Positions 2,576 to 22,758 are shown, counted from the first letter of the stretch. The stretch is DNA of 64,000 nt from Candidatus Micrarchaeota archaeon (GCA_021792095.1 JAJYVH010000001.1:317324-381323), one strand, 5' to 3'. Program-made: numbers and translations. The notes: generated from the letters alone by a model not told the origin.

Positions 2576-2736
2576 AATTTCACGCGTGCCCTGTGGGTTT
2601 GTTATGGTATGCGCCTTTCGCCTTTTAAAGCATCCTGCTGTGCTTCGGGCCGGATCCAGATGCAAGCGCTAGGAGCGCAAGGTGTGTCCAAGCATATTAT
2701 AAAAAAACGTGTTCTGCGGGAGCAGAACCTGAAGCG

Positions 2737-2750
2737 CATCGCCCGAAGCA
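2737..2750 (+). repeat. att-like direct repeat, distal copy (CATCGCCCGAAGCA)
   Basis: Identical to 6655-6668. The extended alignment 2728-2750 vs 6646-6668 matches at 20/23 positions. Confidence 0.8.
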
Positions 2751-2894
2751 CAAGATGTGCGTGAGGCACATCTCCGACAAGAAGGATTTTTATACCGTCG
2801 ATTTTTAGCCTATTTTGGCATATAAGTGTGTATACCAGATATACATTCATTTAAATGAATTTACACGAGTGTATATCGTTTACATTCATGTATG

Positions 2895-3947
2895 TTATTT
2901 AAAGTATAGTGGGCGTGGGTGCTTGGGCGTGCGTGGTAGGTATGCGTATAGCACTATCGCACCCTTCTCAAGCCTTACGTTTATTCGTTTTATGGCATTT
3001 ACCTTTCCAGGAAGCTCGTTGTATATCTTGTTTCTAAGCGCCCTTGAAAAGGAATACTTGATGATGTCGTCGTCTTCGTAGCGCTCGGAGGTCTTCTTCA
3101 TTAAAGGTATTCTTTCCTTGTAGCTTATGCGTCCATTGGACTGCTTTAAGTTTAACACCTTCATGGCGTCTTTTGAGAGTTCCGCAGTATTTACACTGAT
3201 TTTTATTTTATGAGATGCAAGCTGAGGTTGTTTGAGAGGATGAGGCTTTCCATCCTTGAAGTTCATAAGTTTGTATTCAGTCTTCTTTTTGTTGTAGCTT
3301 GATCCCCAGTGCTCCAGTGACCAGATTGGCAGATGCTGGTCTAGCATGTATATCTTGCTCTTAATCCTGATTCCTGCTGCAACATGCCCAGGGGAGAAAG
3401 CAAAATATATCTCGTTCTTGACATACAGGTTTAAGAGCAGGCATGCTGTCAGCTTTGCATAATCTCTGCATACCCCTAGTTTATACTTTATAACCTTCTC
3501 AACAGGTAGGCTGGGCTGAAGGGAATACCAGACAAACCTGAATAATGTTACAACTTTGTTTTTATCTTCCAGGTTGAAGATATGCGTGTTCCATATTAGG
3601 AGCATGACGATTCCGATGAATGCTGACAAGAACATGCCAAATGTCAGGATAACTAGGTTCCTTATTAGATAGATATCTGCTGTTGAATAGATGGCAGGAT
3701 TAATCGGATGAAAAATTGTGAAGACAGCCCAGACGCAGAATATAAACAGGAACCCGAAGCTTATAATCAAAGACCAAGGAGCAAGGGGCCATCGCTCAGT
3801 CCAAAAGTATATGTTCTTGTCTTGCCACTCTAAAATATTAGTCAGTGTCTCTTTGTCTGAGTTACCTTTGAGCTTTTTGGCTAGGCGCATGACCTCCTTG
3901 TCCTTGAGTTCCTTTAAGGTTGGGTGATATCCAATATCCTTGTCCAT
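2895..3947 (-). CDS. transglutaminase-like (papain-fold Cys-His-Asp core) polytopic membrane protein
   Basis: 350-aa ORF in the AT-rich island. It has a central cluster of TM helices. GVCRDYAKLTACLLLN followed by PGHVAAGIRI resembles the transglutaminase-like core Cys and His. Confidence 0.55.
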   Translation of the reverse strand: MDKDIGYHPTLKELKDKEVMRLAKKLKGNSDKETLTNILEWQDKNIYFWTERWPLAPWSLIISFGFLFIFCVWAVFTIFHPINPAIYSTADIYLIRNLVILTFGMFLSAFIGIVMLLIWNTHIFNLEDKNKVVTLFRFVWYSLQPSLPVEKVIKYKLGVCRDYAKLTACLLLNLYVKNEIYFAFSPGHVAAGIRIKSKIYMLDQHLPIWSLEHWGSSYNKKKTEYKLMNFKDGKPHPLKQPQLASHKIKISVNTAELSKDAMKVLNLKQSNGRISYKERIPLMKKTSERYEDDDIIKYSFSRALRNKIYNELPGKVNAIKRINVRLEKGAIVLYAYLPRTPKHPRPLYFK

Positions 3948-4946
3948 TCATAACGCCCGTCTAATAAATTCGCATTTTTCTCCGAATACAGGATATCTAT
4001 CCATATCGACGAGGGTCTTTGAAATCTTACTAAACGATGTATCTATTTCTTTGTCCTTTTCTTTAATCTTACTAATTAAAGATTCGAGTTCTTTATTTTT
4101 GGCATTAGAAGGTTCCTTCTGTAAAGCCTCGAAGATCGCCGTATATTTCTCTGCCTTTTTCGGGTCGTTAGATATGGCTATCCCACCACTGAACGTGCCA
4201 TTATTTTTAGTTAAAGTGACTTGATATCCCTTTGCCATAGACTGAGTTTCTGGTATGCTCCAGTTCATTTCTTGAATTTTTATCTGTTGGCTCTTATCGA
4301 CGCCAGCCACATAACTAGAGAACAACGCATCAACAAACCAGAGATTTAATACATCTGTGCCTTTGTAGTTGTAATCGATTGTTGTTGACAGACCTGCTTT
4401 CTCGAGTTCTTTCATTGCAAGTTCTTCGATATACTTATGCAGGCCATTAAGCTGCTTCTCAAAATCGTTAACCGTTGTGCAGTAACTATTCCAGTCTCCT
4501 AACAGGTTTTTGTATTTCTCTCCTAGATGATTTTGTGTGAGGTCAGAGTATAGTATATCGTTATTGATATTTTCAGGAGCATACTGCGGTCTAGTAAAGT
4601 TTAATTCGTTTTTCTGGAACTGTGCGCCCATTAGCGGTATAATTTTATAATAAAACCCTTCATTTACACGTTTCCACTCGGCGATGAATTTATGCAGATC
4701 TTCAGAGTGCTTAATCTTAACATCCATAATCAAGGATTCGCTAGAGTAGTATATGCTGAAAGCCGCTATGATGAGCGCTGCCCAAGCAGGAATATCTGTG
4801 AACGGAATCAGACCTAGATACACAACTACTAGTAGTATGACAAAGGCGATAATGGCATAACTTATGTGTTTTGTTAAGAGTGTCATTGGTTTCTCACTTT
4901 TAAAGTAAAATGGTAGCCGCCATATTAATATGTGCACCCGAATCAT
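3948..4946 (-). CDS. hypothetical membrane-anchored protein (element cargo)
   Basis: 332-aa ORF with two N-terminal TM helices and a K/E-rich C-terminal coiled-coil-like tail. I recognise no family. Its ATG overlaps the PCNA stop (ATGA). An alternative start is at MTLLTK (4886). Confidence 0.5.
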   Translation of the reverse strand: MIRVHILIWRLPFYFKSEKPMTLLTKHISYAIIAFVILLVVVYLGLIPFTDIPAWAALIIAAFSIYYSSESLIMDVKIKHSEDLHKFIAEWKRVNEGFYYKIIPLMGAQFQKNELNFTRPQYAPENINNDILYSDLTQNHLGEKYKNLLGDWNSYCTTVNDFEKQLNGLHKYIEELAMKELEKAGLSTTIDYNYKGTDVLNLWFVDALFSSYVAGVDKSQQIKIQEMNWSIPETQSMAKGYQVTLTKNNGTFSGGIAISNDPKKAEKYTAIFEALQKEPSNAKNKELESLISKIKEKDKEIDTSFSKISKTLVDMDRYPVFGEKCEFIRRAL

Positions 4947-5700
4947 TCATCTTTGATGTATGGGGCTATGTAGTGTGCGAAGTCGACTCCGTCCATGTGA
5001 TAGCTGATTTTGAGGGGCTCTTTTGTAGTAAATTGGATGTTTACGGGCGTGTCCTTCTTCAGCACGGTGAGCATGCTTTCGATGAATCGGTGTTGTATCT
5101 AGAGGTTTGTTCCTGTGCGTCCGACTTCAGCTTTACCTCTATCCTATCGAATATCCTGCTGGACTCCTCTTCATCCCTTCCTATCGTTGTCAGCGTAAGA
5201 TTTTCCTTTGTTATTTGAAATGTTGTGTGTCCCTTTTTGCCTACCTTGATAAGTTCGTGGACGCTTTTCTGCAACAGCTTGCCATCAATCTCCGCTTCGG
5301 ACTTGAATGCAACACTCGGCTCCTTCTCCACATACCTTGTGACATTTTCTATTAGGACGCTGCCTACGTGTCCTCCGCATTTCAGATTTAATCTCCTTTT
5401 GCCGTCTTTTTCCAGCACGGTCGCAGTCAGTTCCTTGTCATTCGGCATACCTTCGATAAGCTTTGAAACCCTCTCCAAATCTATACCAAGCTCCTCAGGA
5501 CTGCCAAACCTGTACGAGATGAATTGCGCTTTTGGAATGCGAGCCACGATCATCGCTATTCCGCTTGACTCCATCTGCTTTATTTCGATGCCATTCATAT
5601 CGACCTTGATTAAGGCCTTCTTGTCCCTCCCATCATCTTTGAGGCTGACCGCTCCTTCGATCAGCTCCTTGAATGGCTGGGCGTTTATTACAAGGAACAC
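4943..5700 (-). pseudogene. PCNA-like DNA sliding clamp, interrupted by a 1-nt frameshift
   Basis: Frame A (5059-5700, GTG at 5698-5700) reads (M)FLVINAQPFKELIEGAVSLKDDG...IKVDMNGIEIKQMESSGIAMIVARIPKAQF...SRYNTD. A second frame (4943-~5086) reads FIESMLTVLKKDTPVNIQFTTKEPLKISYHMDGVDFAHYIAPYIKDE*. Together they match a full-length archaeal PCNA layout. Confidence 0.7.
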
Positions 5701-5713
5701 GGTGCCCGTATAA

Positions 5714-5787
5714 CTTATTCCATTCTCGGATTTTGAGGCTCTACTTATTCCATTTTGAGCAGGATTTTGGGCTGCGCTTATTCCATT
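5714..5787. repeat. three 11-bp direct repeats CTTATTCCATT (iteron/operator-like)
   Basis: Copies lie at 5714-5724, 5744-5754 and 5777-5787, spaced 30 and 33 bp apart. They sit between the integrase remnant and the PCNA GTG start. Confidence 0.7.
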
Positions 5788-5789
5788 TT

Positions 5790-6591
5790 TGGTAAGCTCG
5801 AAATAGCGGTTGGAGGTAGCTCCGTGGCCTATGACCCTAAGGAGCTTCCTTGCGGAGTCATCGGTCATAGGCTTATCCTTGCCCTTGCTACTGCCTATCT
5901 GCCTCTAGATTATCTGGTCGTCCCTTAAGTCCTTTATGGCATTCAGGTAGGTTACGGTCAGCGAGACTGACATAAGCAGCGGTACCTTCCTCCAGCCTGT
6001 CTTGCCCGTTATTGTGAGCTTCGCTGGCTGCACTGTCAGGTCTAAGTCTTTCTTCCTGACTCCCATTATCTCCCCTATCCTGCAGCCTGTTTCATATAAG
6101 AGGCTAAGGAAGAACTTGTCCCTGAGGTTTATGGCTGCGTCCAGCATCTTAACGATTTCCTGTTCCGTGAGTATGTTGTCTGGCATAAGGTTCTTTCTGG
6201 TTTTGTTCGTTATTTTCATCCAGGCTGTCACTGGGGGCTGATATACGCCCTCTCCCAACAGCTCCTTGTAGAAAACCTTCCAGACCGCCTGGAAATGGAG
6301 CCTGGATTCCATGCTATATGGCGGATCGCAGGAGTTTATGAACGCTGCGGCCTTTTCCATATCCCGTTTTGTTACCTCCTTTAGGTCTTTGTCATAACCT
6401 AGGGCCTCCATCAGCTTTAGAATGCCGTAAATATGCCGTATAACGCTACGTGGGTGCATATTCTTGGCCTTTAGCAGTGTTACGTGGTCTTCGATATAGC
6501 GCCTATTTTGCGCAATTATACGCACGTCAGCTAAAACCCTGTCATAGAGGCGGTTGGCCAGCCTTTGCCAATAGTCGATGTCGTTTGTCAT
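5790..6591 (-). pseudogene. tyrosine recombinase/integrase, decayed (in-frame TAG and missing catalytic region)
   Basis: ORF 5905-6591 carries the box I motif ETGCRIGEI and LTITGKTGWRKVPL, then stops at TAG. The same frame continues after 12 codons as ...DDSARKLLRVIGHGATSNRY, which resembles the LGH...Y C-terminal box. No HxxR box is present. Confidence 0.7.
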
Positions 6592-6654
6592 CGACGTGAC
6601 ATTGTGCCAGCGATGAATATTTATATCTTGTCCCGTAGGGGTCGTGCTTGAAGG

Positions 6655-6668
6655 CCATCGCCCGAAGC
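6655..6668 (+). repeat. att-like direct repeat, tRNA-proximal copy
   Basis: CATCGCCCGAAGCA. Positions 6658-6668 are the 3' end of tRNA-Asn. Confidence 0.8.
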
Positions 6669-6729
6669 AGGGATCGGACCTGCGACCTACTGGTTAACAG
6701 CCAGCCGCTCTACCGCTGAGCTATTCGGG
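6658..6729 (-). tRNA. tRNA-Asn(GTT)
   Basis: Manual cloverleaf: acceptor GCCCGAA/TTCGGGC, anticodon stem-loop GCTGG-CTGTTAA-CCAGT, T arm GCAGG-TCCGATC-CCTGC. No CCA is encoded. Confidence 0.9.
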
Positions 6730-6740
6730 CATGAAAAGGC

Positions 6741-21020: not shown

Positions 21021-21611
21021 GTGACGATGCCGCTTTTGGAATACCAGGTCGTGCTCGGCGCGATGGCCGCGTTCATAGGCCTGGCAGGCTATGCGCCCTA
21101 CCTGATTAACGTAGTCAGGAGGCAGACAAAGCCGCACGCGTTCTCCTGGCTGATCTGGGGCCTGCTGCAGTCAATAGTGTTCTTCGCCTCCACTAGCAAG
21201 GGAGGAGGGGCCGGCGCCTGGGCCATAGGCGCTCCGGCGGCCCTGAACCTGCTGATCTTCGCCATCGCGCTGTTCGTAGGGGAGAAGGAGATAACACGGA
21301 TGGACAAGGCCAGCCTGGCGCTCGCGTTCCTTGGAATGGCGCTGTGGGTCGCCACTACTGATCCTGTCTGGAGCGTGATAATACTCACCGGGGTCGACGT
21401 GCTCGGCCTAGTGCCGACCCTGAGGAAGGCCTACGCCAGGCCGGGGGAGGAGTCGATAAGCGTCTTTGCGTTCAGCGCAGTGTCGTTCTTCATTTCGCTG
21501 TTCGCGGTGCAGTCGGTGAGCCTGACCACGGTGCTGTACCCCAGCGCTGTGGCGATCGGCGCCACGGTGCTTGTGGTGATGGTGCTGGCGAGGAGGAGAA
21601 TGCTGTCGTGA
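21021..21611 (+). CDS. hypothetical polytopic membrane protein
   Basis: 196-aa ORF with about 6 hydrophobic helices. Its stop codon lies inside the putative target duplication of the adjacent insertion. Confidence 0.55.
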   Translation: MTMPLLEYQVVLGAMAAFIGLAGYAPYLINVVRRQTKPHAFSWLIWGLLQSIVFFASTSKGGGAGAWAIGAPAALNLLIFAIALFVGEKEITRMDKASLALAFLGMALWVATTDPVWSVIILTGVDVLGLVPTLRKAYARPGEESISVFAFSAVSFFISLFAVQSVSLTTVLYPSAVAIGATVLVVMVLARRRMLS

Positions 21612-21624
21612 GAAGCTTTGTAGT

Positions 21625-21936
21625 TTAAATACCTATAAAACTACAGGTTGAGGAATAAAAATACATCACGCACCGACCATTTGCTTGAAGGCTTCCCAAT
21701 AGGCTCGTTCTTCCGACGCTATCCATATAGTCCTCGTCAAGGTCTCCGTTGTCTTTCAGAGGAACATAGACTTTGGCTTTCTGGAAAGTCTCCTTGTAAC
21801 ATTGCCTGCCATAAGAGTATCTCCATTTAATCTCGTTGATTGCCGACTGCATAAACAGCAGGGTAGTGAGTTTGAACTGACGTTTGGGTATGCACATCAG
21901 CACATTGTCTGTGGCTATGAAGGAAGTTATCTGCAA
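21625..21936 (-). CDS. hypothetical protein (possible gene fragment; TTG start)
   Basis: 103-aa ORF inside the AT-rich insertion. The frame stays open upstream to the stop of the preceding ORF with no ATG. No confident family. Confidence 0.35.
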   Translation of the reverse strand: MQITSFIATDNVLMCIPKRQFKLTTLLFMQSAINEIKWRYSYGRQCYKETFQKAKVYVPLKDNGDLDEDYMDSVGRTSLLGSLQANGRCVMYFYSSTCSFIGI

Positions 21937-22002
21937 GAAGGCATCGCCACTAACAGTAGAAACAGTTATCGTAAGTTTTGGATAGACCTTTGCTCTGTCT
22001 CC

Positions 22003-22317
22003 CTAATCTTCAAATATCTCTCCCACCAGCTCATCTCTTGTCGTATTGTAGGGACTACTAAAAGTGCCATTAGAAGGGTCTTTTAGTGCTGGTTCTAAAA
22101 CAGGTCTATATTTTTTGAGACAGTGTTTGCAAAGATGGAGTTCAATATGCTGTCCGTCTGCAAAATGCATATCTGCAAACAAGCCGTTCTTTCCTTTGTG
22201 TTCATCAGGCCTTCCGCATAAAGAGCATTTGTAGGTTTTCTTGAGTATTCTATCATAGAGATTGATGCTTGTGCTACCTATAGTTAATGCACCAGCTATT
22301 TCCCCAAGCAGGCTCAT
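22003..22317 (-). CDS. hypothetical small zinc-ribbon-like protein
   Basis: 104 aa with CSLCGRP...HLCKHC (CxxC...CxxC). Lies inside the AT-rich insertion. Confidence 0.45.
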   Translation of the reverse strand: MSLLGEIAGALTIGSTSINLYDRILKKTYKCSLCGRPDEHKGKNGLFADMHFADGQHIELHLCKHCLKKYRPVLEPALKDPSNGTFSSPYNTTRDELVGEIFED

Positions 22318-22413
22318 AACAACCTAAAATAAAACTACACAAAGGCTAATAAAACTATAGAAAATCAATTAAACTACAAAGCCGTCGTTAGACATAGCTT
22401 TAAATAGTGGTGA

Positions 22414-22758
22414 ATGTCTAATTCCTCTGCAGTCTTTAAAGCTGCAGAGAAGTATGAAATGTCAGACGAAGATGAAACAGGCGGATATGGAAGAAGAGGC
22501 GGAGGAGACAGGGGAGACAGAGGAGAGAGAAGGGGCATGAACCCTAACTATTTCCTTCCCAAGCCCGTGAAGGTCGGGGATGTTCTGGAGGTTACCATAG
22601 AAGGGTCTGCTTCCAGGGGAGACGGCATAGCAAAGAAGGACGGTTTCGTCATCTTTGTGAAGGGCGCGAAGCCTGGCGACAAGCTGACAGTCAGGGTGAC
22701 TGATGTCAGGACAAGGTTCGCCATAGGAGAGCCCACAAGCGAAGCCCCGAGCGCCTAG
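22414..22758 (+). CDS. TRAM domain-containing (RNA-binding OB) protein with an acidic/RG-rich N-terminus
   Basis: KPVKVGDVLEVTIEGSASRGDGIAKKDGFVIFVKGAKPGDKLTVRVTDVRTRFAIGE. A possible alternative start is at 22459. Confidence 0.8.
   Translation: MSNSSAVFKAAEKYEMSDEDETGGYGRRGGGDRGDRGERRGMNPNYFLPKPVKVGDVLEVTIEGSASRGDGIAKKDGFVIFVKGAKPGDKLTVRVTDVRTRFAIGEPTSEAPSA

Follow-up and report, generated by a model that had tools for sequence, protein, structure and literature searches.

Plant Pack-MULEs are non-autonomous DNA transposons that capture fragments of genes, and MULE transposases carry SWIM fingers and make 9-bp duplications. The mobile elements of DPANN archaea are known mostly from automated counts. 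Among insertion sequences, two kinds of derived non-autonomous elements have been described, the mobile insertion cassettes (MICs) and the MITEs (PMC3129680). The inverted repeats of IS903B (GGCTTTGTTGAATAAATC) start with GGCTTTGT, and its direct repeat has a length of 9 bp (PMC10569121). IS903 has the target consensus WTTYA-N9-TRAAW and the target-site duplication (TSD) of Mu is 9 bp long (PMC2577343).

These systems were compared with an AT-rich element found in a 64-kb stretch of Micrarchaeota DNA, which is referred to as the window. Searches with the flanking proteins assigned the host to Candidatus Micrarchaeota (DPANN). The element is very probably a non-autonomous derivative of an archaeal IS5-family insertion sequence that resembles a MIC or a MITE, and in ISfinder terms the closest class is a mobile insertion cassette from an IS903-like IS5-family element. 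As in a MIC, terminal inverted repeats (TIRs) of the IS type and a TSD surround ORFs, none of which is a transposase. The difference is that the ORF which was kept is one that the parent IS family itself conserves, not an obvious passenger of benefit to the host, and that an apparently captured gene fragment is present in addition. MITEs share the TIRs, the TSD and the lack of a transposase, but the window element is larger (770 bp) and coding, with a gene of 104 codons. The first eight terminal bases of IS903B and the length of its duplication are matched by the window element. In contrast to IS903 and IS903B, however, the window copy lacks a transposase and possesses subterminal repeats, one direct-repeat and one palindromic end and an extra zinc-ribbon ORF, and its insertion site does not match the IS903 target consensus. 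The likeness to Pack-MULEs is one of analogy only: a transposase is missing, the ends are intact and a piece of an unrelated gene of host type lies inside, whereas the window element belongs to the DDE_Tnp_1/IS5 superfamily, has a prokaryotic host and is a single example. The features of the locus are collected in the table.

Table. Features of the element and of its host locus (positions are counted from the first letter of the window).
Feature	Position	Strand	Remarks
Host membrane-protein gene	21021-21611	+	196 aa; TGA stop at 21609-21611, inside the left TSD copy
Left TSD copy, GTCGTGAGA	21605-21613		includes the TGA stop of the 21021-21611 gene
AT-rich element	21614-22383		770 bp, between the TSD copies
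Left end module	21614-21654	+	palindromic; terminal repeat A-GCTTTGTAGTTTAA (21614-21628) and inverted subterminal TAAAACTACA (21636-21645)
S-subunit pseudogene fragment	21666-22002	-	3' third of a gene of the two-repeat PF01420 family
ORF104	22003-22317	-	104 aa; CxxC...CxxC (zinc-ribbon-like); stop TAG at 22003-22005
Right end module	22318-22383	-	direct-repeat; terminal repeat GGCTTTGTAGTTTAA (22369-22383) and two further TRTAGTTTTA copies, 19-20 nt apart
Right TSD copy, GTCGTTAGA	22384-22392		one G>T in comparison with the left copy and the empty site of L011
Host TRAM-domain gene	22393-22758 (including upstream sequence)	+	PF01938, E = 2.6e-16

Base composition, terminal repeats and a flanking duplication delimit the element. 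Its GC content is 0.404, as opposed to 0.599 and 0.577 in the 2-kb flanks, a jump of 0.19. The sequence GCTTTGTAGTTTAA at 21615-21628 recurs in exact reverse complement at 22369-22382; the inverted repeat scored 14 of 15 bp, with A as the outermost base of the left arm and G as that of the right arm, and the ends of the element read (A/G)GCTTTGTAGTTTAA (AGCTTTGTAGTTTAA on the left, GGCTTTGTAGTTTAA on the right). The 9-mers GTCGTGAGA and GTCGTTAGA that flank these ends agree at eight of nine positions. No further copy of GCTTTGTAGTTTAA was found in the 64-kb window when up to two mismatches were allowed, nor does this window contain a second copy of the element, and a search against Rfam gave no match in 21300-22700. 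A repeat of 14 bp is not rare by itself, as four perfect 14-bp inverted repeats within 2 kb were counted in the window and composition-preserving shuffles yielded 0.74 per window, and the case therefore rests on other evidence. The repeat is significant because it coincides with the composition boundaries and with an adjacent 9-bp duplication, and because a relative has an empty site and the end of 14 to 15 nt recurs at unrelated loci.

The empty site was identified in a related Micrarchaeota species (L011), which is the closest other species in the genome collection, with a membrane protein that is 70% and a TRAM protein that is 90% identical. There, the two genes abut (...GCTGTCGTGAAACATAGATTTAAATAGTGG...), the TRAM promoter follows immediately on the end of the membrane-protein orthologue (...RRRALS*), and GTCGTGAAA is present only once. 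After removal of 21614-22392, the window aligns to L011 with no gap across the junction; therefore, the insertion comprised 770 bp and was accompanied by a duplication of 9 bp. The right TSD copy has changed from G to T at one position since the insertion. Both the host stop codon and the TRAM promoter remained intact, and the TATA-like sequence CATAGCTTTAAATA at 22393-22406 upstream of the TRAM gene was left undamaged. A search with the TRAM protein yielded contigs with the filled locus; the TIR is present in all ten that were listed, and the nine checked contigs that span the locus carry identical copies of the element. L012 and L013, in which the TRAM gene is not a neighbour, did not provide additional empty sites. 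An earlier note on this DNA had described an AT-rich insertion with 14-bp TIRs and a 9-bp near-duplication whose left copy contains the stop codon of the upstream membrane-protein gene, and had proposed to look for further copies of the TIR or the unit and for relatives with an uninterrupted site. The insertion and the position of the stop codon are borne out, copies do exist at other loci and the orthologous locus of L011 does not contain the sequence. Empty site, TSD and copies with a cognate transposase together provide a cleanly documented transposition in a DPANN genome.

The two ends of the element differ in their architecture. With up to one mismatch, the motif TAAAACTACA has nine matches in the window where 1.28 are expected, and six of these lie inside the element (21619 on the minus strand, 21636, 21656, 22330, 22350 and 22369). 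Three copies spaced by 19 to 20 nt form the right end of the element, which thus has direct repeats (22330-22378), while the arrangement at 21619-21645 is palindromic. The copies of the AAAACTACA motif, whose repetition had already been noticed, belong to the subterminal repeats that are typical for the transposon family. The right end module is probably also the promoter and leader of ORF104.

Copies of the same terminus were detected at other loci, and diverged copies of the element reside on the metagenome contigs L105, L106, L108 and L212. In L105, the terminus, the three repeats and a homologue of ORF104 recur within flanking DNA that is not that of the window. L107 encodes a 432-aa transposase with SWIM and DDE_Tnp_1 domains that runs convergently to ORF104, and the stop codons of the two genes are 1 nt apart. 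L212 is a deletion derivative in which the stop of a host gene is followed by GGCTTTGTAGTTTAATTCAGATAAAACTACAGATTAAGGA and then by the last ~30 codons of an L107-type transposase (87% nucleotide identity); the 40-nt left-end module, which reaches to 21654, is common to L212 and the window. Downstream of the transposase stop, at a distance of 250 to 280 bp, L229/L230 and L231-L240 have the exact 15-mer TTAAACTACAAAGCC, and the interval is occupied by a short convergent ORF with CxxC (72 or 74 aa) that is unrelated to ORF104. L105, L229 and L231 all preserve the module of ~58 nt between the terminus and the start codon, which is degenerate in L106. Two of these contigs come from metagenomes that also contain contigs of the window organism (L229 with L010 and L233 with L008). 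A scan of metagenomes with a 17-nt terminus gave at least 120 matches, most of them random singletons; among the matches listed, only L212 was informative and the window's own locus was absent. No archaeal copy was recovered that is complete, with an intact transposase between both ends: the transposase of L231 is 5'-truncated, and the left terminus was found neither in L107 nor within the 4 kb examined for L229.

Complete relatives were obtained from viral contigs. Scans of these contigs with the terminus, with both end modules and with a single transposase query returned chance matches or nothing. An alignment query (IMG/VR) identified 36 distant relatives with 38-50% identity. Among them, seven complete elements of 3.1-4.4 kb, which carry several passenger ORFs, terminate in GGCTTTG...CAAAGCC and are flanked by perfect duplications of 9 bp. 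In the four that were read closely (L244, L253, L263 and L271), one end has a direct subterminal repeat and the other end an inverted (palindromic) one. Which of these end types lies on which side of the transposase is not the same in the archaeal copies as in the distant relatives.

The cognate transposase has ~400 aa, contains SWIM and DDE_Tnp_1 (PF01609) domains and belongs to the IS5 family. At E <= 1e-20, 2,685 homologous proteins were retrieved, some of which are named 'IS5 family transposase [Ca. Micrarchaeales]'. The best NCBIfam model for the archaeal transposases is NF033579 (IS5 family) with 126-129 bits, just below the curated cutoff of 140, and the IS903B transposase reaches 356 bits on the same model. 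A BLASTP comparison of the archaeal transposase with that of IS903B gave 25% identity (E = 4e-15), and the archaeal enzyme differs from the latter by an N-terminal SWIM zinc finger. No transposase is encoded inside the element, as the earlier note had stated, and tblastn with the cognate transposase found none in the 64-kb window. The window copy is therefore non-autonomous (MIC/MITE-like). The suggestion of a non-autonomous element with passenger genes was likewise supported by the occurrence of the same terminus at L105, at L212 and beside IS5-family transposases. An IS6-family derivative was considered as well, given a length of ~770 bp, GG ends, an open frame of ~230 codons and IS240-type transposases near S-subunit homologues in L090 and L092; it was rejected, as the cognate transposase is of the IS5 type and the TSD is 9 bp and not 8 bp long.

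The element contains two minus-strand ORFs, as noted earlier, which we found to lie in one frame and to be split by a single TAG codon. The CxxC ORF (ORF104) has four diverged homologues (L105-L108) with 58-77% amino acid identity. All five copies share the position of the stop codon, which is TAA in L106 and L108 and TAG in L105 and L107, and the sequences downstream of the stop in the homologues are four different ones. With dN values of 0.15-0.25 and saturated dS, ORF104, previously reported as a small ORF, is a genuine conserved gene borne by the element and kept under purifying selection. Searches of NCBIfam, PADLOC, PHROGs and PDB returned nothing meaningful for ORF104, and Pfam gave only a sub-threshold match to DUF4428. 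The AlphaFold model (mean pLDDT 57.8) is too uncertain for use. Alignment with hhalign to the 72-aa and 74-aa CxxC ORFs revealed a likeness that is limited to the CxxC motifs. The probable targets of ORF104 are the repeats of the element itself or its promoter. Purifying selection has retained it in copies without a transposase and even in copies with decayed ends, so that it might exert an independent activity, either selfish or of benefit to the host. That ORF104 and the 72-aa and 74-aa genes are interchangeable element factors, which bind the TGTAGTTTTA repeats and control transposition or target choice, possibly within a two-component IS, seems unlikely to us; if true, such a two-component architecture would be one that is not described for the IS5 family.

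The second ORF had been listed as a fragment without ATG. It has indeed no start codon of its own and is what is left of the 3' part of a restriction-modification specificity (S) subunit gene, a dead, 5'-truncated and frameshifted relic and not a working subunit. The region 21715-22002 encodes a segment with 62% identity to the C-terminal repeat of PF01420 proteins of ~320 aa, and a profile of 97 S homologues matches the window only at profile positions 206-300 of 317 (166 bits). This match begins only after the TAG codon, and no signal was obtained with any ORF104 sequence. A single frameshift is located at ~21714; the corrected tail ...YWEAFKQMVGA* (21713-21669) is followed by the original TGA stop at 21666-21668 and a T-rich tract. 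The C-terminal repeat is common to the window fragment and the S subunits of BcgI-like type IIB and type I-like systems (PADLOC 'Specificity_II'). In L089-L094, two-repeat S homologues are encoded immediately downstream of PF02384 N6-adenine methyltransferases of 470-660 aa, whereas the window piece is partial, frameshifted and without a partner, no homologue of the methyltransferase being found in the window. The fragment takes up precisely the place of the transposase in L107, from the first base past the ORF104 stop to the left-end module. Its position in frame with ORF104 is due to chance. It may have arrived by illegitimate recombination or by a deletion in the donor genome. For annotation, two 'hypothetical' ORFs would become an IS accessory gene and an S-subunit pseudogene.

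The reading of both ORFs as one gene, encoding a zinc-ribbon and S-like protein, was the one first adopted. Either the TAG would be read through (recoding or pyrrolysine) or a recent change from AAG to TAG would have inactivated the gene; the ORFs share a frame, a BLASTP alignment to S proteins crossed the stop with the TAG opposite a conserved Lys, and 96 codons without a stop follow downstream. The reading was abandoned in view of the ORF104 homologues and the S profile and is now considered extremely improbable: the stop falls on the same codon in all five ORF104 homologues, two of which use TAA, four different sequences follow it, the S-family profile has signal only past it, and the S piece is itself frameshifted. 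Evidence also bears on the idea that nothing was inserted at all and that the AT-rich segment is a native intergenic region, in which the inverted repeat arose by chance or represents paired promoter (TTTAA) elements and the direct repeat is coincidental. The number of 14-bp inverted repeats that chance alone would give and the probable promoter function of the right end module are in its favour, but it is contradicted by the L011 empty site, by the jump in GC content and by an identical terminus at unrelated loci and beside transposase genes, which leave it a negligible probability. The explanation of the TIR as paired promoter elements, which the earlier note had mentioned, is thereby not the case.

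The alternative of a novel small mobile unit, also raised in that note, found no support. In that case, the element would be autonomous and ORF104 would move it alone, as a recombinase or transposase of a new and very small type, and it is true that ORF104 is the sole gene kept in the window copy and in L105-L108, that it is under purifying selection and that it lies behind a conserved end module. However, the protein has only 104 residues and no match to a catalytic family in Pfam, NCBIfam, PADLOC, PHROGs or PDB, unrelated CxxC ORFs of 72 and 74 aa fill the same slot beside a canonical DDE transposase, and the 9-bp TSD and the GGCTTTG ends belong to the DDE family, which makes this explanation highly improbable. 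A different question is how the S fragment came to be inside the element. It could be the remnant of restriction-modification cargo in a larger transposon of the same family that lost its transposase and the greater part of this cargo in an internal deletion, rather than a later capture from outside, and we regard this as possible, if somewhat doubtful. Complete relatives do carry several passenger ORFs at lengths of 3.1-4.4 kb, and L229 has an R-M-S cluster directly upstream of its transposase. Nevertheless, the S protein of L229 is of a different S family, and the window fragment is read in the direction of the palindromic end, the reverse of the arrangement in L229. In L107, the transposase stop is separated by 1 nt from that of ORF104, and precisely this point is the start of the S fragment in the window; no element was found with an intact S gene of this type within these termini.

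The preferred explanation remains a derivative of an IS5-family element that was presumably mobilized in trans. Cognate elements have GGCTTTGTAGTTTAA ends and subterminal TGTAGTTTTA repeats, and behind one of the ends they carry a small ORF for a zinc-ribbon protein; both ends and ORF104 have been kept by the window copy, which has the dead 3' third of an S gene where related copies have the transposase. A transposase supplied by a full-length copy would have bound the terminal and subterminal repeats of both ends, cut the target with a 9-bp stagger and joined the element between the membrane-protein stop codon and the TRAM promoter, and gap repair would then have duplicated GTCGTGAGA. The S fragment could have entered when the transposase was replaced via illegitimate recombination or gene-fragment capture, or it could have been left by a deletion inside a larger cargo-carrying relative. 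The element is of an ordinary kind and current understanding is not overturned; the main points of note are the slot for a zinc-ribbon gene, the captured gene fragment and a possible targeting close to promoters. A large and mostly unnamed SWIM-DDE transposase family is tied to IS903-like ends and 9-bp duplications by these data, and this family keeps a small zinc-ribbon gene behind a conserved end/promoter module. The window copy further offers a prokaryotic example of a defective transposon with a fragment of an unrelated gene.

Three insertion sites hint at a preference for positions just upstream of archaeal TATA boxes. The 14-mer CATAGCTTTAAATA, which is unique in the window, is found 9 nt outside the direct-repeat end both in the window and in L229/L230, and L231 has AAGACTAAATAC at the same offset outside this end. 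The apparent target preference is ~12 nt upstream of TTTAAATA, and to steer insertion upstream of TATA boxes would be one conceivable role of ORF104-type factors.

The sequence immediately outside the direct-repeat end, the right terminus of the main element, was found to be shared between insertions. The insertion of the window and that of L229/L230, a locus carrying a SWIM-DDE transposase beside the same terminus, are independent of each other and belong to different genomes. In both, the 14-mer CATAGCTTTAAATA lies exactly 9 nt beyond the direct-repeat terminus, without a single difference. A third insertion, likewise accompanied by a SWIM-DDE transposase (L231), contains the similar TATA-like AAGACTAAATAC at an equal offset. 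This constant position in three insertions may indicate that the element has a promoter-proximal target preference.

Just inside the terminus, sister elements contain a slot between the transposase stop codon and the conserved end module of approximately 58 nt, which is filled in L229, L231 and the window by one small CxxC...CxxC ORF each (72, 74 and 104 aa, respectively), the three being without mutual sequence relationship. L229 and L230 represent one locus in two samples, and comparison with L230 revealed a 39-bp duplication of the end module in L229 that yields two TTAAACTACAAA... copies, which shows that the subterminal repeats differ in length between strains. At L107, where a homologue of the 104-aa ORF is convergent with a transposase, an N-terminal fragment of an IS630-type transposase (NF033545, E = 6e-20) takes the expected place of the 5' end of the homologue and of the end module. 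This arrangement suggests that a nested insertion truncated the homologue to 71 codons.

Restriction-modification genes were also detected near transposons. Directly 5' of the SWIM-DDE transposase of L229 is a cluster encoding an NmeDI_C-like endonuclease, a 750-aa N6_Mtase/Eco57I protein and a 360-aa S subunit; no left terminus was found in L229, and the cluster may or may not be cargo of the element. In L090 and L092-L094, rve/DDE_Tnp_IS240-type transposase genes are located 0.4-1.3 kb 5' of methyltransferase and S (M+S) pairs, and no S proteins are more closely related to the S fragment of the window than those of these pairs. Restriction-modification modules of this M+S type therefore seem to travel often with transposons from other families.

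In L011, the relative with an empty insertion site, about 1.2 kb of additional DNA containing ORFs of 242 and 110 aa separates the TRAM and DUF4382 genes and is absent from the window.

Besides that of the main element, the window contains three further perfect inverted repeats of 14 bp whose arms lie within 2 kb of each other. These pairs are all GC-rich and located in coding DNA, in keeping with the 0.74 per window expected by chance. Another AT-rich island (GC 0.39-0.47) adjoins tRNA-Asn(GTT) and resembles an integrated element whose integrase has been split or truncated.

Coordinates of the features discussed in the text
Feature	Locus	Position	Strand	Remark
CATAGCTTTAAATA	window	22393-22406
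	L229	5498-5511
	L230	1542-1555
AAGACTAAATAC	L231	5162-5176
CxxC...CxxC ORFs	L229	5203-5421
	L231	4869-5093
	window	22003-22317
End module compared	L229	5435-5488
	L230	1518-1532
IS630-type fragment	L107	139-573
Restriction-modification cluster	L229	1-3714
IS240-type transposase genes	L090	2611-3732
	L092-L094	1417-2718
Additional DNA	L011	7061-8151
Inverted-repeat pairs	window	38381/39544; 24833/26611; 8081/8524
AT-rich island	window	2700-6731
tRNA-Asn(GTT)	window	6658-6731		borders island
Tyrosine integrase, N-terminal 228 aa	window	5908-6591	minus	covers only positions 2-75 of the 172 in the PF00589 profile
PCNA_N-like protein	window	5062-5868		within island
Transglutaminase-like DUF553 protein	window	2898-3947		within island
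Uncharacterised 332-aa protein	window			within island
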